64,000 bases of DNA from Dehalococcoidia bacterium (GCA_963668115.1 OY764147.1:1928345-1992344); one strand, 5' to 3'. Positions 1 through 64,000 are shown, counted from the first letter of the stretch. Notes: generated from the sequence alone by a model not told the origin. Numbers and translations: made by a program.

Positions 1-353
1 CCATCGCTCTAGTGGATGCGGCTCTACGGCGTCGGTTCTACTTCTATGACTTCTTCCCCGACAAGCCCCCGATTAAAGGGCTTCTTCGCCAGTGGCTCGA
101 AAAGAATGACCCCGAGATGATGAAGGTCGCCGATTTAGTAGACCGCGCGAACAAGGCATTAGAAGACCGCCACTTGAGTATTGGGCCAAGCCATTTCATG
201 AAGAAAGAACAGAAACTAGACAAAGAACGGGTGCGATTCATCTGGGAACGAGCCGTTTTCCCCTACATTGAGGAGCAACTGTTTGGACGGCAAGAAGACA
301 TAGACAAGTATAGGTTCCACAGGCTAGAGCACATATTGGATGGCAATACATAG
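1..353 (+). CDS. mcrB: McrB-like AAA+ GTPase subunit of a 5-methylcytosine restriction system, C-terminal fragment (5' end lies outside the window)
   Basis: ORF 12..353 is open to the window edge; 'AALRRRFYFYDF' sensor-like motif typical of McrB C-terminus; followed 18 bp later by McrC. Confidence 0.55.
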   Translation, partial: IALVDAALRRRFYFYDFFPDKPPIKGLLRQWLEKNDPEMMKVADLVDRANKALEDRHLSIGPSHFMKKEQKLDKERVRFIWERAVFPYIEEQLFGRQEDIDKYRFHRLEHILDGNT

Positions 354-370
354 GAATCTTCCCAGAGGGG

Positions 371-1636
371 ATGGGGGATAAGAGCTGGCGCAGAGAGATG
401 TCCAAGATTGACCTCCAAGAATACCAGCAGAGCACGCCAAACCGTCTAACGCCTGAACAACGGGACACCCTAAGGACAGTCATTCCGGACCTCTCCATCG
501 ACCATGTTGCGGGGAGAGAGAGTTTGTACATACTTACCCCCGGATCGACTGTTGGGGCAGTAGAGGTTAATGATCTCTCGGTGGTGATAGAGCCGAAGAT
601 TGGGATATCACAACTTCTGTCGTTGGCGTGCTACGCCATCGGGAAGGTGAAGTTTCAGGAGACGGACGTAGACCTCAGGGAAGAAAAAACGTTGCCGGAT
701 GCGTTGGCTCTCGCGTTATCAGCGGCGGCGAGGCAAGCATTCGGTCGGGGGTTGCTGCATGGGTATCTGGTACATGAAGAGGCGTTGCAGACGGTGCGGG
801 GGCGCATCCGGTTCAATGACCAGATACGGCGGAGGTTCGGAATAGCGCTGCCGGTGGAGGTGCGGTATGACGAGTTTACGGACGATATCACGGAGAACCG
901 GCTGGTGAAGGCGGCGGTGGCCCGGCTTGGCGGGTTGCGGTTGCGGTCGCAGAAGGCGCGGACGGGTCTCGGGTGGGCGTGGGCGATGCTGGACAACGTG
1001 TCGCAGGTGGACTACCGGCCCAAAGACGTGCCGGAAGTGAAGTTCGACAGGCTGAATGAACACTACAGGCAAGTAGTGGCGCTGGCTCGGTTGATTCTGC
1101 GGCACGGGGCTTTTGAGTCGGGGCGGGGGGAGGTGCGGGCACAGGGGTTCCTGATGGACATGAACGTGGTGTTCCAGGAGTTTGTTACGGTGGCGTTGAG
1201 GGAGGCTTTGGGGGTGTCGGCGCAAGTGTTTGGCGAGCAGTGGATTTCTCCATTGGCCGTTGATGGACGGATTGCGCTAAAGCCGGACTTGGTATGGAGG
1301 CGGGGACCTGCTTATAGATTCGTCGGCGATGCGAAATACAAGCATATCAAGGATGACCGCTTTCCCAACGCCGATATCTATCAGATATTTGCATATATGA
1401 CATCGGCTAAGCTACGAAATGGAATGCTAATCTACGCAAAGGGAGAGGTGGAAGATACAACGTATTCGGTGCGGAACGCCGACAAAGAAGTGTACGTGGC
1501 TACGCTAGACCTGGAAGGCGACCTGGATTCGATATTGGGTCGGGTGGAGGAGTTGGCGGAGGGGATTAAGGGACTTGCCGACGTAGGGGGATCACCCTCA
1601 CCCTCTCACGCCCGAGGCGCACTTACAGCCCCTTGA
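371..1636 (+). CDS. mcrC: McrC family 5-methylcytosine-specific restriction endonuclease subunit
   Basis: 421 aa; C-terminal PD-(D/E)xK-like 'KPDLVW...VGDAKYK' motif; RBS agagggg before ATG 371; adjacent to McrB fragment. Confidence 0.7.
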   Translation: MGDKSWRREMSKIDLQEYQQSTPNRLTPEQRDTLRTVIPDLSIDHVAGRESLYILTPGSTVGAVEVNDLSVVIEPKIGISQLLSLACYAIGKVKFQETDVDLREEKTLPDALALALSAAARQAFGRGLLHGYLVHEEALQTVRGRIRFNDQIRRRFGIALPVEVRYDEFTDDITENRLVKAAVARLGGLRLRSQKARTGLGWAWAMLDNVSQVDYRPKDVPEVKFDRLNEHYRQVVALARLILRHGAFESGRGEVRAQGFLMDMNVVFQEFVTVALREALGVSAQVFGEQWISPLAVDGRIALKPDLVWRRGPAYRFVGDAKYKHIKDDRFPNADIYQIFAYMTSAKLRNGMLIYAKGEVEDTTYSVRNADKEVYVATLDLEGDLDSILGRVEELAEGIKGLADVGGSPSPSHARGALTAP

Positions 1637-1771: not shown

Positions 1772-1899
1772 CATAAGGTGGGTGGGGATGATGGAGAGGG
1801 GCTTAGGGAGCGACGCTGGAGATTCCTCGCGGGGCATCGGAATGACAGTGTAGTGATGTGCAGGGCTAGGCAAGGGTGAGCGGCACCGCGCCGGGGAGG

Positions 1900-2021
1900 G
1901 GACACCACTCCGTTCCGTTCGGTCGACCCTTCGACTCCGCTCAGGGCGAACGGAACCCCCACCCCGCGGGATGGATTCACGCCAATGGCGCATCTTCGAC
2001 CCGACTACTCGGGAATGACGG
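1900..2021 (+). repeat. MITE-like nested-hairpin repeat, copy B (122 bp, identical to copy A; period 250 bp)
   Basis: Identical to 1650..1771. The 128-bp spacer 1772..1899 carries a 28-bp module (1820..1847) that recurs in reverse complement inside mnmG. Confidence 0.85.
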
Positions 2022-2076
2022 GTTAAAGGGTCGGGAATGATCCGCCATGGGCGGACAGGCTCCCCCGGAGGGTGGG

Positions 2077-3145: not shown

Positions 3146-3892
3146 CTAGAGTCTTGCGAGGGCTTCGGGTAGCTCTGAGAGGTTGTCGACGCGGGCGTCG
3201 GGGGAGACGGGGACGTGGTCCCAGGTTGCACCACCTATGAGGACGGCTTTCATGCCGACGCGCTGGGCGCCTAGGATGTCGGTTTCGGGGCGGTCACCTA
3301 CGTGGACGGACTGTCGGGGGTCGGCGCCGATGGCTTGGAGGGTATCCAGGAAGAGGGTGGGGGCGGGCTTGGCGATTTGCTCCTCATCGGAGAAGGTGAG
3401 GTGGAGGAGGTACCGGGCAATGCCGATGTCGGCGAGGAATTTTCGGGCGAGGGCGCCGGGGGTGGTTCCGGAGTTGCAGATCAGGGCGATCCTGTAGCCC
3501 TCGTCGGTGAGGGTGGAAAGGGTCTCGAGGACGCCGGGCATCAGGGCGGGGGGGTGCTCCAGGAAGGCGTTCAGGTGGCGCTCGGAGACCTGCGCTTTGG
3601 CTTCGGGGTCGAGGGAAGAGGAAAGGTCGGGCTGGATGGAGTCGAGGAAGTCGTTCAGCTGGGTTTCGAAGGGGGTGTCGAGGCCTCGGGTGCGGACGTT
3701 TTCGAACTTCTGCTGGGAGTCCCAGTAAACCTCGGCAATGTGCTCCCTGGTGCAATGGACACCGTACTCGGAGAGGATGGCGGTTGTGGCGTCGATTCTC
3801 TTCCTGGCTCGGGAGACTCCGCCGCCTGCCACGTCCCTTATGAGGGTGTTCCACAGGTCGAATGTGATGCCTTGTATTGCGTCGTTTCTCAT
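3146..3892 (-). CDS. HAD-superfamily hydrolase (phosphatase-like)
   Basis: N-terminal FDLWNTL (DxD-type HAD motif I) and C-terminal VGDRPETDI motif. Confidence 0.8.
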   Translation of the reverse strand: MRNDAIQGITFDLWNTLIRDVAGGGVSRARKRIDATTAILSEYGVHCTREHIAEVYWDSQQKFENVRTRGLDTPFETQLNDFLDSIQPDLSSSLDPEAKAQVSERHLNAFLEHPPALMPGVLETLSTLTDEGYRIALICNSGTTPGALARKFLADIGIARYLLHLTFSDEEQIAKPAPTLFLDTLQAIGADPRQSVHVGDRPETDILGAQRVGMKAVLIGGATWDHVPVSPDARVDNLSELPEALARL

Positions 3893-3973: not shown

Positions 3974-4486
3974 TCAGTATTCGATGACGGTTGTAATTGG
4001 ATAGCCCTTGATGCGGTCTCTGCCTCCGAGGTCCGTGAGCTCGATCAGGAAGGCCAGTCCGGCCACCACCCCGCCCAGCTCCTCCACCAGCCTCACCGTC
4101 GCCTCCGCAGTGCCCCCGGTGGCCAGCAGATCGTCTACGACCAGTACCCTCTCCCCGCTGGACACGGCATCCCTGTGCAGTTCCATGGAGTTGGAGCCGT
4201 ACTCCAGGTCGTAGCTGACCTTGACCGCCTCCCTGGGCAGCTTGCCCTCTTTCCTGACCGGGAGGAGCGGTTTTCCCAACTCCAGGGCCAGGGGTGCGGC
4301 GATAAGGAAGCCGCGGGCGTCGATGGCGGCGAAGGAGTCTATGTGATTGCCGTCAATGTCCTGCTTGATGAGGTCCAAGGCGTGACGAAAGGCGGGAGGG
4401 GACTGGAGGAGGGGGGTGATGTCTCGGAAGAGGATGCCGGGCTTGGGGAAGTCGGGGACGTTGGCGATGTAGTCTTTGAGGTCCAT
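3974..4486 (-). CDS. apt: Adenine phosphoribosyltransferase
   Basis: MDLKDYIANVPDFPKPGILFRD N-terminus and VVDDLLATGGT PRPP-binding motif; start chosen at internal ATG (M23 of the longer TTG ORF). Confidence 0.85.
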   Translation of the reverse strand: MDLKDYIANVPDFPKPGILFRDITPLLQSPPAFRHALDLIKQDIDGNHIDSFAAIDARGFLIAAPLALELGKPLLPVRKEGKLPREAVKVSYDLEYGSNSMELHRDAVSSGERVLVVDDLLATGGTAEATVRLVEELGGVVAGLAFLIELTDLGGRDRIKGYPITTVIEY

Positions 4487-38593: not shown

Positions 38594-38998
38594 GTTGCGC
38601 CCCTTCCCCGGCTCGAAAAATTTTGCCCGACATGATAGACCCGCACCACCCATTCAGCAATACAAATCGGCTTGTGCAAACCCGGTATTGCGCGATTCAC
38701 CACAATGGCCTTATATTGGAAGTACATCAAGAAAGGAGGTGATCAATTGGAAACAGATGATAAACGGACTGGTGAGGTGTCTGTAACGTAAACGGTTTTG
38801 ACACGTAGTCGTGCCCATTGGGTTCCGTTTACGGAATCCGCGCAGGCACCGGGCCCCGAAGCTCCCGGGTAGTCCACCGGGGCGGCCGCAAGGCTGAAGC
38901 GCTTCGGGGCTTTTCCTTTGCCCGTCTTAACTCCAAAACAATCTATCGCCGCACTGCCTAGGGGTCACTACAGGAAGACTCTTAAACATCAGTAAGGC

Positions 38999-53308: not shown

Positions 53309-55366
53309 CTAGGTTGCCTCAACCCTCTCCCGCCCCCGCTCCAAATGCACCAGCAGCAGGCTGATGTCCGAGGTCCTCACCCCCGGCACCCGGGATGCCT
53401 GCCCCACCGTCAGCGGCACGAAGCGGCCTAGGTTCTCCCGGGCCTCGTTCGAAAGGCCCTTGATCTCCCCGTAGTCCACGTCCTGCGGAATCGGTCTCTG
53501 CTCCAGCCTGCGTATCCTCTCCACCTCCCGGCCCTGACGCTCGATGTAGTCCTGGTACTTGGCCTCGATCTCCACCTGCTCCCTCTCCTCCTCCCCCAGT
53601 CCCTCGTCCCCCAGGCCTAGCTCTACCGCCGTCTGATACCCGACCTCGGGCCTGCGCAGGAACTCCATCCCCGTGACCGCCTTCCGAACGGGCGTCAGCC
53701 CGATGCTTACCAGGTGAGGGTCTATGCTTCCGTCCTGCGGCAGATACGTCTTGCCCAGCCTTTCCATCTCCCGGGTCACCCGGCTACGCTTCTCCTCCAC
53801 CGTCCTGTATTGCCCCTCGCTGAGCAACCCAACGTCATAGCCGATGGGAGCGAGACGGAGGTCGGCGTTGTCCTGACGTAACAGGAGCCGGTGCTCGGCC
53901 CGAGACGTGAGCATCCGATACGGCTCGAAGTGGTCCCGGGTCACCAGGTCGTCTATCATCACCCCCAAATAAGCCTGGTCCCGACGCAATACCATCGGCC
54001 CCCGGCCCTTCACCCGAAGCGCCGCGTTTATCCCCGCCACTATCCCCTGCCCCGCCGCCTCCTCGTACCCCGATGTCCCGCACACCTGCCCCGCCAGGAA
54101 CAGGTTTGGAATCAGCTTTGTCTCCATCGTCGCGTTGATCTGGTCCGTCAACACGAAGTCGTACTCTATGGCGTAGCCGTGCTTCAGTATCTCGGCCCGT
54201 TCCAGCCCCGCTATCGACCTCACGAAGGCTTCCTGCACGTCCTCCGGAAGGCTGGTATTAGCGCCCTGGAGGTACACCTCGTCGGTCTGCCAACCCTCGG
54301 GTTCCAGGAACAGGCCATGTGACTCCTTGTGGGCGAAGCGCACAACCTTGTCCTCGATGGACGGGCAGTACCGTGGCCCGACCCCCTCTATCGAGCCGTT
54401 GAACATCGGCGCCCGGTCCAGGTTTGCAGTGATAAGTTCGTGGGTCATGGGATTCGTGCTCACCAGGTAGCAGGCCATCTGCGGCCGCCACCCCGACTCC
54501 TGGGGCTTGGGATATACCGGATTAGGCGTAGGAAAGCGCAGTGAATCGCCGTTGGCGCCCCAGAAGCTGAAGTGCAGGGGCGTCGGGCTGCCGGGCTGTA
54601 TCCTGGCCTTTGAGAAGTCGATAGTGCGAGCGTCCAGCCGGGGCGGCGTCCCTGTCTTGTGTCTTCCGAGAACGAACCCCAACTGCTTCAACGACTCCGA
54701 TATCTCCGACGCCGCGGGCTCCCCCGCCCGACCCCCCGTGTACGCCCGCTCACCCATGATGATCTTTCCCGCCAGCGACGTCCCTGTAGTCAGCACCACC
54801 GTCCTCCCCACATATGCCTCCCCGGACTTCGTCTCCAAACTGATCCACCCACCCTCAGACAATCCGTCATTCCCACCCCCGAGCCGGAATCCATCCCCTC
54901 CCCCAATATCACTACGACGCCTATCTCCCATGTCATTCCGATGCCCCGCGAGGAATCTGGGGTGGGGTCCGCCTCCTCCCCCCAGCACAATCCCCACAAC
55001 CAAATCCTCCCTGGCCGTCAACCCCTCCTGCCTCTCCAGCGTCCTCCGCATCTCCCGCGCATACATCTCCTTATCCGACTGGGCACGAAGTGCTTGCACC
55101 GCCGGTCCCTTCCCTGTGTTCAGCATACGGATCTGGATGAACGTCTTGTCCGTGTTCCGGCCCATCTCCCCACCCAGCGCATCCACTTCCCGGGCCAGGT
55201 GTCCCTTCGCCGGCCCCCCTATCGACGGGTTGCAAGGCATCAGTGCGATATGGTCCAGCTTCATCGTCAGGACCAGGGTATCGCAACCCATCCGCGCCGC
55301 CGCCAAAGCTGCCTCGCACCCCGCATGCCCCGCCCCGATAACAATTACGTCGTAGGTCTTGGTCAT
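53309..55366 (-). CDS. mnmG: tRNA uridine 5-carboxymethylaminomethyl modification enzyme MnmG (GidA), carrying a roughly 45-aa Gly/Arg-rich in-frame insertion
   Basis: [28 protein letters not shown]-terminus and GidA core motifs; 685 aa versus about 630 typical. Confidence 0.85.
54864..54985 (-). repeat. Repeat-family-derived segment inserted in-frame within mnmG
   Basis: Begins with the ccgtcattccc terminal module; 54931..54958 is an exact 28-bp reverse-complement match to 1820..1847; ggggtgggg module at 54960. Confidence 0.7.
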
Positions 55367-57429: not shown

Positions 57430-58701
57430 CTAGGGCCGGACGTGTCCGCGGCCCAGGATTATCCACTTGTAGGATGTCATTTCCCGGAGCCCCATCGGGC
57501 CCCGAGCGTGCATTTTCTGTGTGCTGATCCCCACCTCCGCCCCCAGCCCGAACTGCCCGCCGTCCGTGAACCGCGTGCTCGCGTTCACGAAAACCGCCGC
57601 GGCATCAACCTCGTCCAGGAACCTCTGCGCCGCCGAGTAGTCCTCGGTGAGGATCGCCTCCGAATGCCCCGACCCGTATGCCTCGATGTGGGCCAGGGCC
57701 TCGTCCATGTCGTCGACTACCTTCACCGAGGCGACCAGGGCCAGGAACTCCATCCCCCAGTCCGACTCCACCGCAGCCGACACACCGCCCATCCCATTTA
57801 TCACGTCGAAAGCCCTCTCGTCGCACCGGATCTCGACGCCCTTCTCGCCCCAGGCGCGGGCTATCCGGGGAAGATATTCTTGGGCGACTGAGGAGTGCAC
57901 GATGAGGGTGTCCAGGGCGTTGCAGGTGGAGGGGCGTTGTACCTTCGCATTGTAGGCTATGGCCACCGCGCTGTCGAGGTTGGCGGACCTGTCCACGTAG
58001 GTGTGGCAGACCCCCACCCCGCCCGCCACCACGGGCATGGAAGCGTTCGAGTCCACGTACCGGATGAAGTCCTCGCTGCCCCGGGGCACCATCAGGTCGA
58101 TTATGCCCTTCATCTCCAGCATCTCCCCGACCAGGGCCCGGTCCGTGGAGTCGACGAACTGCACCGCCTCCCCCGGGCCCCCCGCCTCGACCAGGCTGTC
58201 CCGCACGATGGATGCCAGCAGCCGGTTCGACCGGATGGCCTCCTTGCCGCCCCTCAGCAGCACCGCGTTCCCCGACTTCAGGCATAAGCAGGATATATCA
58301 ATTGTCACGTTGGGCCGGCTCTCGTATATCGCCCCGATAAGCCCCAGCGGCACCCGACGCTTCCCCACCTGCAACCCGTTGGGCAGTGTCCGCATGTCGA
58401 ACGTCTCCCCGACGGGATCGGGCAGCCCGGCGATGCTCTCCACGTCCTCGGCGAGGGCCCGGATGCGGTCATGGGTGAGGAGCAGCCGGTCCAGCAGCGA
58501 CTCCGAAAGTCCCGACTCGGCGCTGGAGTCATAGTCCTGCCGGTTCGCCTCGACAATCTCGTCCTGCCGCTCCACCAACGCCCCGGCGATGTTCAGCAAC
58601 GCCCGGTCCTTAACCGCACTGGAAGCCCGACCCAGCTCCCGCCCCGCCCCCCGCGCCGCCAGCGCCTGCGCCCTCAGGTCTTGTTTAACCGTGGTGGTCA
58701 T
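57430..58701 (-). CDS. proA: Glutamate-5-semialdehyde dehydrogenase (gamma-glutamyl phosphate reductase)
   Basis: Start at ATG 58701 (AGGTG RBS); ALDH-fold ProA motifs (PLGLIGAIYESRPNVT, catalytic Cys region STCNALDTL). Confidence 0.85.
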   Translation of the reverse strand: MTTTVKQDLRAQALAARGAGRELGRASSAVKDRALLNIAGALVERQDEIVEANRQDYDSSAESGLSESLLDRLLLTHDRIRALAEDVESIAGLPDPVGETFDMRTLPNGLQVGKRRVPLGLIGAIYESRPNVTIDISCLCLKSGNAVLLRGGKEAIRSNRLLASIVRDSLVEAGGPGEAVQFVDSTDRALVGEMLEMKGIIDLMVPRGSEDFIRYVDSNASMPVVAGGVGVCHTYVDRSANLDSAVAIAYNAKVQRPSTCNALDTLIVHSSVAQEYLPRIARAWGEKGVEIRCDERAFDVINGMGGVSAAVESDWGMEFLALVASVKVVDDMDEALAHIEAYGSGHSEAILTEDYSAAQRFLDEVDAAAVFVNASTRFTDGGQFGLGAEVGISTQKMHARGPMGLREMTSYKWIILGRGHVRP

Positions 58702-58901
58702 AGCGACACCTATTATCAGACCTCCACCTTTGAGGGGCAAGAACGGTCGGGCATGCTGTCAATTAGCTCCATCGTCCGCACACTCACCGTGCACCTCCAC
58801 TTACGGATTACGTTAGTTAAAATATATCAGACCGTGGGTCTAAGCACCGCCTAAGACTACGCCGCTTACTGGCAAGAATAACACTCGAGGAAGCACGACC
58901 A

Positions 58902-59933
58902 TTGGCTAAGAACAAGCGCACGTTGCCCGCTCCAAACACTTGGGACAATTCAAATCAGCACTGGGTTTCGCAGTTTCTCTTAAAAGGCTTTGGCCTTCCA
59001 GGCAATGCAAGTCATGTATATACCTTGGATAAACGCACTCTTTCTACCACGATTCGATCTGTAGACGACGTTGCTTCTAAAGTGAATTTGCTCACAGCCC
59101 AGGACAATAGCCGCTTAACTAGTATTGAGCGCAGCATTACCGGAGCGGTTCAACGCCTTCGTAAAGGCCACCAAATTCACCTGGCAGTAAAGGAACGACA
59201 ATTACTCAACGACCTAGTACTGTCTCTAATCCTGGCTGACCCTTATTCTGGAGTGAAAAGAGAAAAGCTACGCAAGGACGTCGTTCAGAATACGGCCAAC
59301 ATGATTGCCGAGATTGCATTTCGCAATGGGTTGCCAGTCAGTAGGCCTCGACTACAATCCTCAATGCACCCACTTCTACCGGAGGATGTTCTAACGCTGG
59401 CGCTGGACTCCGAAAACAGCCTGACCTCCATCGCCTTAAGCCTTATGGGTTTGAGTATCCATAAGGCAACAAAACCCCTCGTGATTGGTGATTCTCCGGT
59501 GATGATTGCTCGAGCGCGGCGTAACAGTGTCCCAAGCCTGTTAAATTTTGGCAGCGAGATAGCATTGCCTATAGCCTATAACTGCGTCTTGGTCTACGAC
59601 TGGGTTACTGAACCAAACACGGTGACTCTAGCGGATCCCCTGACCAACCAGCAAAGTCGACTAGTAGGACACTATTACTGGAGTATTTCAAGGTGCCGGT
59701 ACGTGTTTAGTCGAACACGCGACGCACTTTACGAAGCTAGGATGCCATACGAGTCATTAGTTGAGTCGACGGGCTCAGTTACTCCTTCCACAGGTTGGCA
59801 TCTTATGCAGGAAATAGCCAAGAATAGTGAAATACGGCGACAGCTGCAGGATGACCAGGAACGCCTAAAGTTTGAGAGGGGGATCAATACTCTTGCGACC
59901 CGAGGTGACGCCCGACCTCTGTATGAGTATTGA
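58902..59933 (+). CDS. DUF4238-family protein on the opposite strand between proB and proA, low GC
   Basis: 343 aa, TTG start; N-terminal HWVSQFLLKGF resembles the DUF4238 'H.VPQFYL..F' motif; GC about 47% versus roughly 62% in the flanks. Confidence 0.5.
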   Translation: MAKNKRTLPAPNTWDNSNQHWVSQFLLKGFGLPGNASHVYTLDKRTLSTTIRSVDDVASKVNLLTAQDNSRLTSIERSITGAVQRLRKGHQIHLAVKERQLLNDLVLSLILADPYSGVKREKLRKDVVQNTANMIAEIAFRNGLPVSRPRLQSSMHPLLPEDVLTLALDSENSLTSIALSLMGLSIHKATKPLVIGDSPVMIARARRNSVPSLLNFGSEIALPIAYNCVLVYDWVTEPNTVTLADPLTNQQSRLVGHYYWSISRCRYVFSRTRDALYEARMPYESLVESTGSVTPSTGWHLMQEIAKNSEIRRQLQDDQERLKFERGINTLATRGDARPLYEY

Positions 59934-60056: not shown

Positions 60057-61199
60057 CTACAACAACACCAAATTATCCCGGTGCACCAGCTCCGCCCCGT
60101 ACTCATACCCGAGAATTTCGAATATCCTACCCGACCTCTCCCCCGCAATCGCCCTCGCATCCTCCGCATCGTAGTTTGACAGGCCGCAGGCTATCCGGTT
60201 CCCGTCCCCGTCCTCCACGACCAGCACGTCGCCCCGCTCAAAGCTCCCCGACACCTCCGTCACCCCCGCAGGCAACAGGCTCTTCCCTCCCTTCACCACC
60301 GCCGACGCCGCTCCCCCGTCCACCCGCACCGACCCCCGGGAGTTCAGCCCGCTCAGCATCCACCGCTTCCGGCTCTCCATCTTCGTCGTATGGCTCGGGA
60401 AGAACGTCCCCAGCCCCTCGCCCCCGGCCAGCCTCGGGATCACGTTCTCCAGCCGCCCCTTGGCGATCACAACGTCCACCCCCGACGCCGTCGCCAGGCT
60501 CGCAGCCTGCAGCTTGGTCACCATCCCCCCGACCGCCTTGCTGCTCTTGGTGCCCGCCGCCAGCGAGGTTATGGAGTCGTCGATGGTCTCGACCTTCGGG
60601 ATTAGCTCGGCCTGAGGGTCGTGCATCGGGTCCGAGGTGTACAGCCCGGCCACGTCCGAAAGTATCATCAGCAGGTCCGCATCTACGAGGTTCGCCACCA
60701 TCGCTGAAAGGTTGTCGTTGTCCCCGAACCGGGCCCCCCTTATCTCCTCGACGGCGACCACGTCGTTCTCGTTGACAATCGGCTGCACCCCGAGCTCCAG
60801 CAACGTGTTAAGGGTGTTGCGCACGTTCAGATACCCCAGCCTGTCCGACAAGTCCCCCCTCGACACCAGCGCCTGCGCCACCGTTATCCCGTGCTCCCCA
60901 AACAGCCTGTCGTAGGCCTGCATCAGCCGGCCCTGTCCCACCGACGCCAGCACCTGCTTCAGCGGCACCCCCCGATGCTCCGGCACCTGACCCAGTATCT
61001 CCCGCCCCGACGCCATCGCCCCCGATGACACCAGCACCACCTCCATCCCGTCCCGCCTGATCTCCGCTATCTGCCTCACCAGCGAGGCCATGCAGTCCAG
61101 GTCGAGGCCGCGGTCGGGCCCCGCTAGCAAGTTGCTCCCCAGCTTGACCACCACCCTCCGGTACGCGCCCGATTCTAGGTTGTTATTCGACTTAGCCAT
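60057..61199 (-). CDS. proB: Glutamate 5-kinase (with C-terminal PUA domain)
   Basis: Start at ATG 61199; VVVKLGSNLL, amino-acid-kinase fold, C-terminal PUA domain (VDGGAASAVVKGGKSLLPAGV). Confidence 0.85.
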   Translation of the reverse strand: MAKSNNNLESGAYRRVVVKLGSNLLAGPDRGLDLDCMASLVRQIAEIRRDGMEVVLVSSGAMASGREILGQVPEHRGVPLKQVLASVGQGRLMQAYDRLFGEHGITVAQALVSRGDLSDRLGYLNVRNTLNTLLELGVQPIVNENDVVAVEEIRGARFGDNDNLSAMVANLVDADLLMILSDVAGLYTSDPMHDPQAELIPKVETIDDSITSLAAGTKSSKAVGGMVTKLQAASLATASGVDVVIAKGRLENVIPRLAGGEGLGTFFPSHTTKMESRKRWMLSGLNSRGSVRVDGGAASAVVKGGKSLLPAGVTEVSGSFERGDVLVVEDGDGNRIACGLSNYDAEDARAIAGERSGRIFEILGYEYGAELVHRDNLVLL

Positions 61200-61324
61200 T
61201 TCCTGCTTCGACAAGGAATCGAGTATAGCACCGGCCATTCAAAACAGTGGTGGGAAGGGGCAATGCTCCTTCCCACCACTGGACTAATTTACAACTGTAG
61301 CTTCCACTTCAGAGCGAGAATTCG

Positions 61325-61405
61325 TCCCCTTGGGGTGGGGCATTCCGCTCGCCCTGAGCGGAGTCGAAGGGTCTCAAGAGCGGAATGGGTGGGGTGTCCC
61401 GCTCC
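61325..61405 (-). repeat. Nested-hairpin repeat, copy C (reverse orientation relative to copies A/B)
   Basis: Core gccctgagcggagtcgaagggtc identical to the reverse complement of the copy A core; outer stem cattccgctc/gagcggaatg differs from A by compensatory changes. Confidence 0.8.
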
Positions 61406-61491
61406 GCTATCTCGTTGGTATACAAAGGTCTCGTCGAGGGAAAGGAGGCAGAAAGCCACACTTACCCTACCCAGTACCCCTTGAGGTCTCC

Positions 61492-62373
61492 CTACGTTGT
61501 CCCGTTGGAGCCGTCCTCCTGCGCAGTCGCAGCCAGGTTCATGAACGGCTTCAGCACGTTCGTGAACTCCATCGGGAAAATGAACTTGGTGGACGGGCTC
61601 GCCCCGATGTCCTTCAACGTCTCGAAGTACTGTAGGCTCATCGTCTTGGAGTCGACCCCCTGTGCCACCCTGTAGATCTGGTCCAGCGCATTGCTGAATC
61701 CCTCGGCGTTCAGAATCGCCGCCTGTCTGTTGCCCTCGGCCTTCAAAATTTCTGCTTGTCTCAGTCCTTCGGCACTCAGGATGGCAGCCTGCTTCTGGCC
61801 CTCGGCGACGGTGATGTTCGCCTCTTTCTGGCCGTCCGCCTCGGTGACCACCGCCCGGCGTTCCCGCTCGGCGGCCATCTGCCTGTTCATGGCGTGCTGT
61901 ATCTCGGCAGGCGGGTCGATCTCCCGTATCTCGACCGCCGTGACCTTCACCCCCCACCTCCCCGTCACCTCGTCCAGCTTAACCCGCAGGATTTGGTTGA
62001 TCTCCTCCCTCTTTGCCAGGACGTCGTCCAGCGGAATATCCCCGACCACCGCCCTCAGCGTTGTCGTCGCCATTCCGACAATCGCCGCCCTGAAGTCCTG
62101 CACCTCCAGCACGCTCTTCTCCGCCTCGTGGTCCAGCACCTTGTAGTAGATCAGGAAGTCGATGTCTATCGGCGCGTTGTCCTTGGTGATGTTCGTCTGT
62201 CGGGCGACGTCAATGACGTCTTCTCGGAGGTCGACCTTCTGGAAGCTGTCGACGAACGGGATTAGCAGCCGAAGCCCCGCCCCCTTCAGCCCGAAGAACT
62301 TGCCCAGCCTGAAGGGCACCATCCTTTCGTACTGCTTCACTATGATTACCGGAAATATAACGGGTGTAGCCAT
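61492..62373 (-). CDS. SPFH/band-7 (stomatin/prohibitin-like) protein
   Basis: 293 aa; SPFH domain followed by coiled-coil AEGQKQAAILSAEG repeats; downstream of nfeD. Confidence 0.85.
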   Translation of the reverse strand: MATPVIFPVIIVKQYERMVPFRLGKFFGLKGAGLRLLIPFVDSFQKVDLREDVIDVARQTNITKDNAPIDIDFLIYYKVLDHEAEKSVLEVQDFRAAIVGMATTTLRAVVGDIPLDDVLAKREEINQILRVKLDEVTGRWGVKVTAVEIREIDPPAEIQHAMNRQMAAERERRAVVTEADGQKEANITVAEGQKQAAILSAEGLRQAEILKAEGNRQAAILNAEGFSNALDQIYRVAQGVDSKTMSLQYFETLKDIGASPSTKFIFPMEFTNVLKPFMNLAATAQEDGSNGTT

Positions 62374-62391
62374 ATACGGCTCCTTTCTGAT

Positions 62392-63723
62392 TCACGCTTT
62401 ACGGACCTTGATTATAAGTCCATCCACCCCAACCACCTCCACCTTGTCCCCCACCCCGATCTCCTCCTCCCCCGACGAAACCGCACTCCACGTCTCACTG
62501 GTAAGCTGCACAGTCCCGACTGGACTCAAGGCCGTCAAGACCTTGCCTGTCTGCCCTATCAAATTCTCTCCAACCTGGGTGTACTTCATCTTTCGCGTCC
62601 TCACCACCGCCCCGACGATAAACAGTGCGAAAAAGGCAATCAGCCCCGACAGTATCCCCACCAGCCACAAGCTTATCCTGACTACGGGCGCATCCGGAAA
62701 GTCCGGCTCCCCGACGGAGAAGAGCAGCAATGTGCCCAGCACGAACGCGACCACTCCACCTATCCCCAGGAACCCCAGCCCCGGGGCCTGGATTTCGAAG
62801 AATATCAGTATGGCGGCCAGTGCAAGAAGTACGATGCCCGCCCAGTTGAAAGGCAGCGTGCCCAGGGCCACCAACCCGATTATCATGGCGAGGCCCCCGA
62901 CCACGCCTGGCACTATCAGCCCGGGGCTAAGTAGCTCCACGAACAGGCCCAACGCCCCGAAGGTCAGCAAAAGCCCGATAACGTTCGGGTCCCCGACGAA
63001 CCCGAAGAACCTCTCCGCCAGGCTCATATCCACCTCACGCTCCACCAGCCCTTCCGTCTCCATCGTCACCACCCCCGACACCGTCTCCGTCTCCCGCCCG
63101 TCCAGCTGTTCCAGCAGGTCCTCCATGTCCACTGCCACGAAGTCGACTAGGTTCGCCTCCACCGCCGCCGAGGCCGTGTATGCCTCGGCCTCGGTGATGG
63201 TCTTGGTCAGGGCCTCCTTGTCCCGGCCCCGCTTCTCGGCTATGCCCTCGGCCATGGCGACGGTGATATTCGTGGCTTTCTCGGAGAGGGTGTCGGGCAA
63301 ATCTTCCCCGTCCGCCGACACCGGCGGCGCCGCCCCGATGGATGTGCCTTCCGCCATCACCGCAAAGTTCGCCGCCGCCGTCACAAACGTCCCCGCCGAA
63401 GCCGCAAAAGCGCCCGGTGGATACACGTACACCGCCACAGGCACATCGGCGCTTAGCAGATGTTCAACAATCTTTTCAGTGGACGAAAGCAGGCCTCCCG
63501 GCGTGTCCAGCTTGATGACCACCAGCGACGCCCCATCCTCCTCCGCCAGCCTGATCCCCCTGGAGAAGTACCTCTCCGCGTTGGGGTCTATGTTGCCGTC
63601 ATAGGTGAGTACGTAGACCTGCTCTGTCGCGCTTTGGGCGTGGGCGGGGGTCAGCAGCAACGCCAGCCCGACAACCAACATCGCCACCGCCAGTGACAGC
63701 CTGATGCCCCTTTTCACCCCCAT
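62392..63723 (-). CDS. NfeD-family membrane-bound ClpP-class serine protease
   Basis: 443 aa; signal peptide, ClpP-like N-domain, multi-TM region, C-terminal OB-fold; classic nfeD-stomatin operon. Confidence 0.85.
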   Translation of the reverse strand: MGVKRGIRLSLAVAMLVVGLALLLTPAHAQSATEQVYVLTYDGNIDPNAERYFSRGIRLAEEDGASLVVIKLDTPGGLLSSTEKIVEHLLSADVPVAVYVYPPGAFAASAGTFVTAAANFAVMAEGTSIGAAPPVSADGEDLPDTLSEKATNITVAMAEGIAEKRGRDKEALTKTITEAEAYTASAAVEANLVDFVAVDMEDLLEQLDGRETETVSGVVTMETEGLVEREVDMSLAERFFGFVGDPNVIGLLLTFGALGLFVELLSPGLIVPGVVGGLAMIIGLVALGTLPFNWAGIVLLALAAILIFFEIQAPGLGFLGIGGVVAFVLGTLLLFSVGEPDFPDAPVVRISLWLVGILSGLIAFFALFIVGAVVRTRKMKYTQVGENLIGQTGKVLTALSPVGTVQLTSETWSAVSSGEEEIGVGDKVEVVGVDGLIIKVRKA

Positions 63724-63764
63724 GCTTCGAATTATACAACCTCATCATTTCCTCCCTTCACGTT

Positions 63765-63870
63765 CCGTCATTCCCGCAAGAGCCAAATGCCGCTCGCTTC
63801 AGGGGTGGGGCAGAATCCGCTCATCCTGAGCAGGGTCGAAGGGTCGAGCGGATTCTGGGAGGTGTCCCCC
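63765..63870 (-). repeat. Nested-hairpin repeat, copy D (full length, with terminal modules ccgtcattccc ... ggtgtccccc)
   Basis: Outer stem cagaatccgctc/gagcggattctg (12 bp, compensatory relative to A and C); core atcctgagcagggtcgaagggtc. Confidence 0.8.
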
Positions 63871-63914
63871 TAACGGGCAGGCCATGTAAATGTCACTGCT
63901 ACGAAGAGTGGAGG

Positions 63915-63972
63915 CGATGTGGGGCCGCTCATACTGAGCCCTGTCGAAGCATGAGCCGGGGGAGCGGTCGTT
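63915..63972. repeat. Related short hairpin repeat, copy E (ccgctcatactgagccctgtcgaagcatgagccggggagcgg)
   Basis: Shares the ctgagc...gtcgaag motif; stems gctcat/atgagc and ccgctc/gagcgg. Confidence 0.6.
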
Positions 63973-64000
63973 GCTATAATCTCACCAGGGACGGCTTCCC

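Follow-up and report, generated by a model that had tools for sequence, protein, structure and literature searches.

The small Neisseria nuclease SsnA, a single-domain GIY-YIG protein of 94 residues, binds an extended repeat known as NTS (CGTCATTCCCGCGMAVGCGGGAATCYRG) as a single-stranded DNA (ssDNA) hairpin formed by one strand only, cuts a few nucleotides upstream of that hairpin, and shows no binding to RNA or duplex DNA (Chenal et al. 2025 Nat Commun, PMC11893778). The ssn genes are typically bracketed by their own repeat, and the Ssn clade is nearly synonymous with CDD entry cd10448 (GIY-YIG_unchar_3) (PMC11893778). NTS is an extended form of a CGTC-tagged repetitive extragenic palindromic (REP) sequence. 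Such short palindromes combine a CGTC or TGTC tag with an 8-9-bp stem beginning with AT, a 4-5-nt loop and a CCA tail, and both dRS3 of Neisseria and RPE-4/6 of Rickettsia are among them (Di Nocera, De Gregorio & Rocco 2013, PMC3733652). Here we describe an intergenic hairpin repeat in a 64,000-nt stretch of DNA from a Dehalococcoidia bacterium (GCA_963668115.1 OY764147.1:1928345-1992344), referred to as the window and numbered from its first letter. As a repeat family it represents ordinary REP-like biology. Five copies lie in the window, and we moderately favor the reading, by analogy with Ssn, that they are target hairpins of an Ssn-like GIY-YIG nuclease encoded elsewhere in the genome, which would recognize them as ssDNA.

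Copies were located with two covariance models: R1, built from 24 equal-length copies, and R2, built independently of R1 and only from repeats that flank GIY-YIG genes (see below). Four copies are strong and a fifth is weak and degenerate. Copy A occupies 1895-1971 on the minus strand (R1 68.8 bits; R2 24.7 bits, E = 1e-4) and has an identical twin, copy B, at 1645-1721 on the same strand (R1 68.4 bits). The other three lie on the plus strand: copy C at 61326-61404 (R1 103.8 bits; R2 E = 0.01), copy D at 63796-63872 (R1 58.8 bits; R2 E = 0.007), and the degenerate copy E at 63910-63975, which R2 detects at 63921-63962 (24.6 bits, E = 1e-4) and R1 only weakly (E = 0.04). An earlier sequence-only reading had placed the repeat at 61325-63972 and listed copies A, C and D. 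The repeat sequences that it quoted, with outer stems that differ and yet remain complementary, are present in the window as described. Its coordinates fit C and D, but copy A lies outside them, at 1895-1971, and its otherwise correct list did not include the twin B or the degenerate copy E.

All strong copies share the core CYCTGAGC-NNN-GTCGAAGGGTC, while their outer stems vary and stay complementary. The 21-nt core CCTGAGCNGNGTCGAAGGGTC alone occurs four times in the window, compared with 0.03 occurrences expected by chance. On the minus strand copies A and B read GTTCCGTTCG-CCCTGAGCGGAGTCGAAGGGTC-GAC-CGAACGGAAC, with GTTCCGTTCG pairing with CGAACGGAAC in the outer stem. Copy C reads CATTCCGCTC-GCCCTGAGCGGAGTCGAAGGGTC-TCAA-GAGCGGAATG, its outer stem being CATTCCGCTC/GAGCGGAATG, and copy D reads CAGAATCCGCTC-ATCCTGAGCAGGGTCGAAGGGTC-GAGCGGATTCTG, with CAGAATCCGCTC/GAGCGGATTCTG as the outer stem around the core ATCCTGAGCAGGGTCGAAGGGTC. 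Copy E is a degenerate version of the canonical type, CCGCTCATA-CTGAGCCCTGTCGAAG-CATGAGCCGG. The nested hairpins are built in three layers. The outermost is a G-run/C-run pair, GGGGTGGGG ... TCCCCNCCCC; the second is the outer stem of 9-12 bp, whose sequence differs among copies; and the innermost is a 5-bp stem, (G/A)YCCT ... AGGGT, that closes the 12-nt loop GAGC-NNN-GTCGA. Copy C, for example, runs from GGGGTGGGG through the outer stem to the inner hairpin GCCCT-GAGCGGAGTCGA-AGGGT, followed by a spacer and GGTGGGGTGTCCC. Calculated ssDNA folds of A, C and D are more stable than those of shuffled sequence (z = -2.0 to -4.4; copy C, z = -2.6; copy D, z = -3.4 for the DNA fold), and the fold of copy E alone is no better than that of shuffled sequence. 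Short spurious ORF (open reading frame) peptides can be read from the window repeats (PFALSGVEGS, VRPERSRRV and FDSAQGER). Hammerhead, K-turn and T-loop readings of the loop CUGAGC...GUCGAAG were tried by hand and dropped; tandem G·A/A·G appositions beside a G-C pair are present and the hammerhead core CUGANGA is absent.

A search with the pattern GGGGTGGGG-N(6-22)-CTGAGCNNNGTCGAAGG in one genome per species returned 61 loci, 47 of them from about ten Dehalococcoidia metagenome-assembled genomes (MAGs) of 3-3.4 Mb. The pattern that gathered these first 47 copies does not include the outer stem's 3′ arm, and direct reading shows that arm to be complementary to the 5′ arm in every subtype among them. 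With R1 and a cut-off of E up to 1e-3, the window and 48 related Dehalococcoidia MAG loci (about 0.45 Mb) yield 82 copies, 78 of them distinct. In this larger alignment, 97.6% of stem cells hold a standard pair; shifting the 3′ partner by 1-3 columns lowers this to 33-52%. Two-sided changes occur in six of the 15 stem pairs and fill 36 cells, against 6.3 ± 2.1 in shuffled alignments, none of which reaches 36 in 500 trials; the alignment is fitted to the model's own structure, and its copies are related by descent within a handful of subfamilies, with stem cells that are not independent and few independent events. The clearest covarying pair is C-G in 61 copies, U-A in 16 and unpaired in none; another is A-U in 44, G-C in seven, the intermediate G-U in two and unpaired in one. 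Orthologous copies are 94-100% identical across species, whereas the 250 nt on each side are 66-85% identical, and their differences fall in the loop, the spacer or the flanks, or convert a Watson-Crick pair to a G·T wobble. Orthologous copies that are better kept than their flanks, with changes that lie outside the pairing, argue for a hairpin under constraint or homogenization rather than in free decay. Together with the covariation of the stems, this supports the proposal, made from the window alone, that compensatory changes reflect selection on secondary structure.

Paired stems could also persist without any dedicated enzyme. The repeat would then be a selfish or neutral palindrome, spread by block duplication or borrowed transposases, whose stems stay paired through descent from perfect palindromes and hairpin-templated repair of one arm, and for which a GIY-YIG gene would be a preferred landing site. 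The subfamilies are few, and so are the independent compensatory events; whole composite blocks have been duplicated (one of 122 nt within the window, another of about 440 nt between the related loci L079 and L090); IS30-like, IS481-like and DDE_Tnp_1 elements adjoin copies, a sign that these palindromes attract insertions; and a REP survey concluded that CGTC-tagged REPs have no dedicated transposase (PMC3733652). These features speak for such a repeat. The conservation of orthologous copies above their flanks runs counter to it, as does a second observation, described below for repeats from several phyla: the loop and the 5′ CCGTTCG are kept while the inner stem covaries, which is not expected from neutral decay.

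The evidence for a partner enzyme comes from the genes that the repeat brackets. A six-frame motif search of the Dehalococcoidia loci finds one small GIY-YIG ORF, at 2418-2700 of locus L080, from a related Dehalococcoidia MAG. Its 94-residue product matches Pfam PF01541 (E = 6.5e-19) and contains the GIY-YIG domain only; NCBIfam and PADLOC searches with this protein gave no match. Two sense copies of the hairpin (AGTCCGTTCGCCCTGAGCAGAGTCGAAGGGTTGACCGAACGGAC) lie upstream of the gene and one inverted copy lies downstream, and these flanking hairpins differ at two positions from the hairpin of copies A and B that runs from CCGTTCG to CGAACGGA. Close homologs on other large contigs with unrelated gene neighborhoods (P0004 and P0006) are bracketed by three to six copies, and a GIY-YIG gene with a hairpin on both sides is seen in L080, L291 and L292. 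More than 5000 database clusters are related to the L080 protein at E below 1e-5, and the annotated termini of some relatives run into the repeat (for example RPSTSSGRTD).

This association extends well beyond the Dehalococcoidia. We retrieved 80 unrelated metagenome loci by protein patterns alone, with a gene product of about 95 residues, and counted the motif TGAG[CT]-N(2-4)-[TC]CGAA within 300 nt of the gene. Of the 80 loci, 42 have the motif upstream, 47 have it downstream and 37 have it on both sides. Near the gene it reaches 2.52 per kb, 16-fold above the 0.16 per kb of more distant sequence, and the 126 hits there compare with 7.9 expected (Poisson p about 1e-102). Copies are mostly arranged as inverted repeats around the gene, with 41 sense copies versus 15 upstream and 49 inverted copies versus 21 downstream. 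A landing preference alone could hardly account for an inverted layout around one small gene at 37 of 80 unrelated loci, and we regard a palindrome devoid of a dedicated enzyme as an unlikely account of the repeat.

The gene-flanking repeats follow the consensus tCCGTTCG-YCC-TGAGCYTGTCGAA-GGR-YGAACGG, with CCGTTCGTCCTGAGCTTGTCGAAGGATGAACGG as the canonical hairpin. In a gap-free alignment of 105 of them, three inner stem pairs covary, using up to four pair types with almost no unpaired combinations, and the loop and the 5′ CCGTTCG stay fixed across phyla. When R2, which is built from these repeats, is run on the window, its hits below E = 1 are the five copies and no others, which places the window copies in a repeat family that spans multiple phyla. 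The loop also recurs on its own in viral contigs with varied stems, 35 of 113 distinct hits having a flanking stem of at least 3 bp compared with seven expected. From these sequence comparisons, the candidate partner enzyme is likely a small single-domain GIY-YIG nuclease rather than an IS200/IS605 transposase. In locus L292, the GIY-YIG gene is flanked by CCGTTCG-type hairpins, and the protein of its MAG is 73% identical to the Dehalococcoidia nuclease. About 150 nt downstream of this gene, at 4449-4476, stands CGTCATTCCCGCGAAAGCGGGAATCTAA, which is the Neisseria NTS consensus with one mismatch. Both repeat types thus occur at one nuclease locus.

The sequence-only reading had named an IS200/IS605 TnpA transposase as a possible cognate enzyme. 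In that case the repeat would be a REP-type miniature element mobilized through its ssDNA hairpin by a Y1 HUH transposase, either a RAYT or TnpA itself. The general biology is the same, with short intergenic palindromes in clusters and mosaics, in both orientations, that vary by presence and absence, and REP families likewise show complementary stem changes and G·T pairs (PMC3733652). Nevertheless, no copy carries a GTAG tag, and the repeatedly bracketed gene encodes a GIY-YIG protein and not a Y1 transposase. The window and about 0.45 Mb of related loci, which represent part of each genome, yielded no candidate in a crude six-frame search for HUH/Y1 motifs, whose one match, in a 576-residue ORF, is irrelevant. 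The named transposase is not borne out by this search, and we rate mobilization by a Y1 enzyme as very improbable.

A cis-acting RNA element, serving as 3′ end protection, a transcription terminator or a processing site, was considered as well. REPs in enterobacteria stabilize upstream mRNA, and most copies of the present repeat lie near gene ends, with 16 in convergent and nine in divergent contexts; wobbles of the G·U type are tolerated. The copies are intergenic and occur in either orientation relative to neighboring genes. Among the 82 copies, codon-usage gene calls place 26 in sense and 19 in antisense with co-directional neighbors (p = 0.37), so that the orientation preference expected of a transcript element is not apparent; these counts are approximate, the codon-usage caller having put the HAD-like hydrolase ORF at 3146-3892 on the wrong strand and missed a DUF4238 gene. 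A terminator scan calls none at any copy, and no T-run follows the hairpin on either strand. The copies match no family in Rfam 15, either at the gathering threshold across the whole window or at E up to 10 in two regions, and the RNA folds of A and B are only as stable as shuffled sequence (z about 0). Among the functions first listed for the repeat, the recognition site of a DNA enzyme fits best, while a terminator or transcript stabilizer, with neither a U-tract nor an orientation bias, is not supported. That copy C lies upstream of a separate terminator-like hairpin, and that C and D are missing from related operons (see below), also speaks against an RNA element, which we judge improbable.

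Copies C and D/E bracket an nfeD-SPFH operon on the minus strand (61492-63723), consisting of the NfeD gene (62392-63723; Pfam NfeD domains) and the SPFH/stomatin gene (61492-62373; Pfam Band_7). Copy C lies within the 3′ untranslated region of the SPFH gene and antisense to it, and copy D is on the strand opposite nfeD, 73-149 nt upstream of its start codon. We compared this region with five orthologous nfeD-SPFH loci (L293-L297), all of which keep the gene order and four of which keep proB downstream. Copy C is missing from all five; in the window it belongs to about 185 nt of inserted sequence that separates the SPFH stop codon from a distinct terminator-like hairpin. No copy is detected at the site of D in L293-L297, and D is absent from the upstream alignment of L293-L296, as is a partial CGTC module at 63766-63801. 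Copy D and this module form one inserted block, all of which is missing in L295 and L296. An ortholog of copy E is present in these two loci, and copy E is, by this comparison, older than C and D. Because C and D are missing from the relatives' loci, they look like recent lineage insertions of a dispersed element and not conserved operon signals; relatives dispense with both, so the operon does not need the hairpins. That C and D flank the nfeD-stomatin operon is thus true of their positions and does not hold as a conserved feature, and their bracketing of nfeD-SPFH in direct orientation may well be chance, given two recent insertions. In practice, the hairpins near this operon should be annotated as repeats and not as regulatory signals.

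The terminator-like hairpin downstream of copy C lies at 61241-61281 on the minus strand, with 18-bp arms followed by TTTTGAATGG (TTTT), and does not belong to the repeat. L293-L296, which lack copy C, retain it with compensating changes, and it is probably the true terminator of the nfeD-SPFH operon. Beyond it, a conserved GGTGCTATACTCGA kept in four related genomes is probably the -10 region of the proB promoter.

Turnover is evident throughout the related genomes. Filled and empty sites are seen at syntenic positions among genomes that are 84-93% identical (window 3075 vs L076; window 48898 vs L084; L087 vs L071; L048 vs L079), and the repeats are dispersed elements that turn over between genomes. 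Copies A and B sit between convergent gene ends at 1636 and 2077, within a 122-nt stretch that is exactly repeated at 1650-1771 and 1900-2021, 250 nt apart. Tandem Repeats Finder makes no call in this region because the 122-nt copies are separated by unrelated sequence. Each 122-nt copy carries a CGTC module, with a small hairpin (GCGCC-att-GGCGT) nested inside it, and copy A or B. The syntenic region of L076 holds two copies in a different arrangement, and the cluster is therefore being rearranged. At 5596-5698 of L079, a second core, CATGTCCTGAGCCCCGTCGAAG, is inserted within the first core of one copy, so the core of about 22 nt may duplicate or insert on its own. On a larger scale, a composite block of about 440 nt is duplicated between L079 and L090.

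These observations can be joined in a model in which one strand of the repeat would extrude its hairpin whenever replication, repair or DNA uptake leaves it single-stranded. The genome would encode, at another site, a small single-domain GIY-YIG nuclease that binds the hairpin and probably cuts nearby. The repeat family has the broad consensus CCGTTCG-YCC-TGAGC-N3-(G)TCGAA-GGR-YGAACGG, to which the local Dehalococcoidia version adds outer layers. The nuclease gene with a hairpin on each side could form a compact, insertion-sequence-like unit, minimal and mobile or domesticated, and the solo hairpins A-E would be its dispersed offspring or targets. Only copies that fold would be recognized, and so retained or propagated, which would allow compensatory stem changes to persist. 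An indirect sign of strand-specific folding of a single strand is that, on the sense strand, G·T wobbles exceed A·C mismatches (76 vs 13, or 29 vs 11 without one dominant pair, p = 0.006; 107 vs 49 in the broad repeat set). If Neisseria is a guide, the cell might thereby modulate incoming or replicating ssDNA near the flanked genes. We infer the ssDNA binding, the cleavage and the cellular consequence from homology and the shared layout.

Several points weigh against an Ssn-like nuclease as the partner of this repeat. A six-frame motif search of the 64-kb window finds no GIY-YIG gene. The sequence of the stem itself has a bearing on the activity of SsnA, whereas the outer stem varies freely here. 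The published degenerate consensus for Ssn-related motifs (SRM), HGTCWYN(0-2)YYVSBRHN(0-5)WNVSBRGN(0-2)RNCYNB, does not match copy C, the widespread core form or the local CGTC REP, and its single match in the window lies elsewhere, with 0.8 expected by chance. By sequence similarity, the hairpin-linked nuclease may lie outside the characterized Ssn clade (cd10448, GIY-YIG_unchar_3). Comparisons of filled and empty sites reveal no target-site duplication or defined insertion junction, and the indifference to gene orientation is read from the approximate counts given above. Finally, the excess of G·T wobbles is perhaps inflated, as the model that collected the copies rewards G·U pairs.

A broader and more tentative proposition, which we hold at somewhat below even chances, is that UPF0213-type proteins as a group, listed under unknown function ever since structural genomics solved BH0048 and EF2693, are site-specific ssDNA nucleases, with a site of the form CCGTTCG...CTGAGC-N3-GTCGAAGG...CGAACGG across bacterial phyla, and that the gene and its hairpins constitute a minimal self-propagating unit. 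Such a unit would seed solo hairpins from Chloroflexota to Proteobacteria and phage contigs and would add to Ssn/NTS a second, independent pairing of nuclease and repeat. In the Dehalococcoidia copies the core lies in the loop of an NTS-like stem (ATTCCGC...GCGGAAT), and these copies might then be composite sites for two nucleases. If the pairing of hairpin and nuclease is real, it would supply a function, and the sequence recognized, for a very large group of tiny GIY-YIG proteins, explain a GC-rich intergenic hairpin that generates spurious short ORFs in many phyla, and add a new specificity to the site-specific ssDNA nucleases being developed as laboratory tools. A pairing between this very widespread hairpin and a UPF0213-like GIY-YIG protein seems to have no earlier description in the searchable literature; a search of literature text by exact DNA strings and repeat-encoded peptides returned no relevant paper, with figures outside its scope and a prior depiction possible.

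The repeat is accompanied by other palindromes. A second module lies directly upstream of many copies (for example CGTC-ATTCCTGC-GGAG-GCAGGAAT-CCA), and CGTC/NTS-type REPs, the established substrates of Ssn nucleases, are abundant in the related genomes, often fused directly upstream of copies. In the window, a CGTC-tagged REP/NTS-like module at 1972-2023 (minus strand; CGTC-ATTCCCGA-gtag-TCGGG-[tcgaagatGCGCCattGGCGTg]-AATCC) stands directly upstream of copy A, with a second small hairpin nested inside it, and an equivalent module precedes copy B at about 1722-1773. The module's succession of tag, AT-initial stem and tail matches CGTC REPs (PMC3733652) and the Neisseria NTS (PMC11893778). The partial CGTC-tagged module at 63766-63801 (plus strand; CGTCATTCCCGCAAGAGCC...) is directly upstream of D. 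A free-standing TGTC-tagged REP at 1818-1847 (minus strand; TGTC-ATTCCGATGCCCCGCGAGGAAT-CTCC) represents a unit that recurs in many related loci. At 54865-54960 on the plus strand, two tagged REPs occur without a hairpin copy, CGTC-ATTCCCACCCCCGAGCCGGAAT-CCA and TGTC-ATTCCGATGCCCCGCGAGGAAT-CTG followed by GGGGTGGGG. A generic search for CGTC-tagged hairpins in the window was too noisy, performing no better than control tags. The G-runs that flank the hairpins were considered as target-site duplications and rejected, being similar direct repeats that do not co-vary copy by copy. The repeat was also compared with miniature inverted-repeat transposable elements: it keeps its interior (loop and core) and varies in its outer arms, the reverse of the pattern in such elements, and the flanking GGGGTGGGG and GGYGGGG are alike but unmatched from copy to copy.

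Genes near the repeats include several associated with mobility or defense. Transposase genes (IS481-like, IS30-like, DDE_Tnp_1 and rve) adjoin hairpin copies or the nfeD locus of relatives, at L062 2107-3069, L061 3422-4432, and L293 271-1728 and 6771-7451, which suggests that insertion sequences of unrelated kinds are drawn to palindrome clusters. The A/B cluster has two ORFs upstream of it (window 12-1636), and in L291 a GmrSD_N gene is found some 3.6 kb upstream of the gene for the GIY-YIG protein; we guess that the ORF at 371-1636 might be McrC-like, which would place restriction-type genes near repeat clusters. Downstream of the nfeD-SPFH operon, proB (60057-61238) and proA (57430-58740) occupy the minus strand, and proB likely starts at a second ATG near 61199 rather than at 61238. 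Between them the window holds a DUF4238 gene on the plus strand (58902-59933) that the codon-usage model does not recognize as native. The same slot contains ORFs of unknown function in L294 and L295 and a type ISP restriction-modification enzyme in L296, and it looks like an integration hotspot. Elsewhere, 38724-38918 on the plus strand matches Rfam Ms_IGR-5 (RF02471; 58.8 bits, gathering score 45), a small RNA family described in Actinobacteria, in a window that is otherwise Dehalococcoidia-like.

Among described systems, the CGTC-tagged REPs resemble the repeat in being intergenic palindromes with complementary stem substitutions and G·T pairs, located between co-directional or convergent genes and sometimes nested or mosaic. 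To this type belong the modules that immediately precede A, B and D, which have a CGTC or TGTC tag and an ATTCC start to the stem; the classic CCA tail is seen on the 54865 REP and on copies in related loci. The hairpins themselves differ in having neither a CGTC tag nor a CCA tail, a loop of 27-29 nt that contains a second hairpin, and a GGG tail. Before their outer stems stands GGGGTGGGG(C/G), and before the inner stem GCTC, instead of CGTC, TGTC or CCTC; the stem of copy C (ATTCCGCTC) has the AT start, while that of A/B starts with GT. The REP/BIME sequences and their RAYT enzymes, reportedly described by Nunvar in 2010, Bertels and Rainey in 2011 and Ton-Hoang in 2012, are said to pair a domesticated enzyme that acts on ssDNA hairpins with a gene flanked by its own repeat. 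The present repeat shares the flanked enzyme gene and the dispersed solo and clustered mosaic copies; it differs in its GIY-YIG nuclease, in place of a Y1 HUH transposase, and in the absence of a GTAG tag.

The closest family of solved structure for the enzyme is UPF0213 (E. coli YhbQ-like). The L080 protein matches the UPF0213 structures BH0048 (1zg2, E = 2.6e-16) and EF2693 (1ywl, E = 9.2e-12), both deposited in the PDB as hypothetical proteins, and we know of no reported link between UPF0213 and any repeat. The published NTS-ssn-NTS layout is seen in a viral contig (L003), where inverted CGTCATTCCCGCGAAAGCGGGAAC (CGTCATTCCCGCGAAAGCGGGAACCCAG) repeats stand on both sides of a GIY-YIG gene; the product of this gene is 39% identical to the L080 protein (E = 4e-13) and is much further than the L080 protein from the UPF0213 structures (E = 0.0024). 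With Ssn/NTS, the present system shares a gene for a GIY-YIG protein of about 94-100 residues, bracketed by a hairpin repeat that is often inverted, and many intergenic copies. Like the repeats of the Ssn/SRM definition (inverted repeats of 20-50 nt that form hairpins in many copies), it is numerous, with five copies in 64 kb and 82 in 0.45 Mb, and its orientation is set by a conserved unpaired sequence 5′ of the stem. It differs in which part is conserved, namely the 5′ CCGTTCG and the 11-12-nt loop TGAGC-N3-(G)TCGAA, as opposed to CGTC-ATTCCC...GGGAAT-C in NTS, and the Dehalococcoidia version is wrapped in two extra hairpin layers. By this analogy, the repeat and its candidate nuclease would work like Ssn/NTS, and we do not file them as members of the characterized clade.

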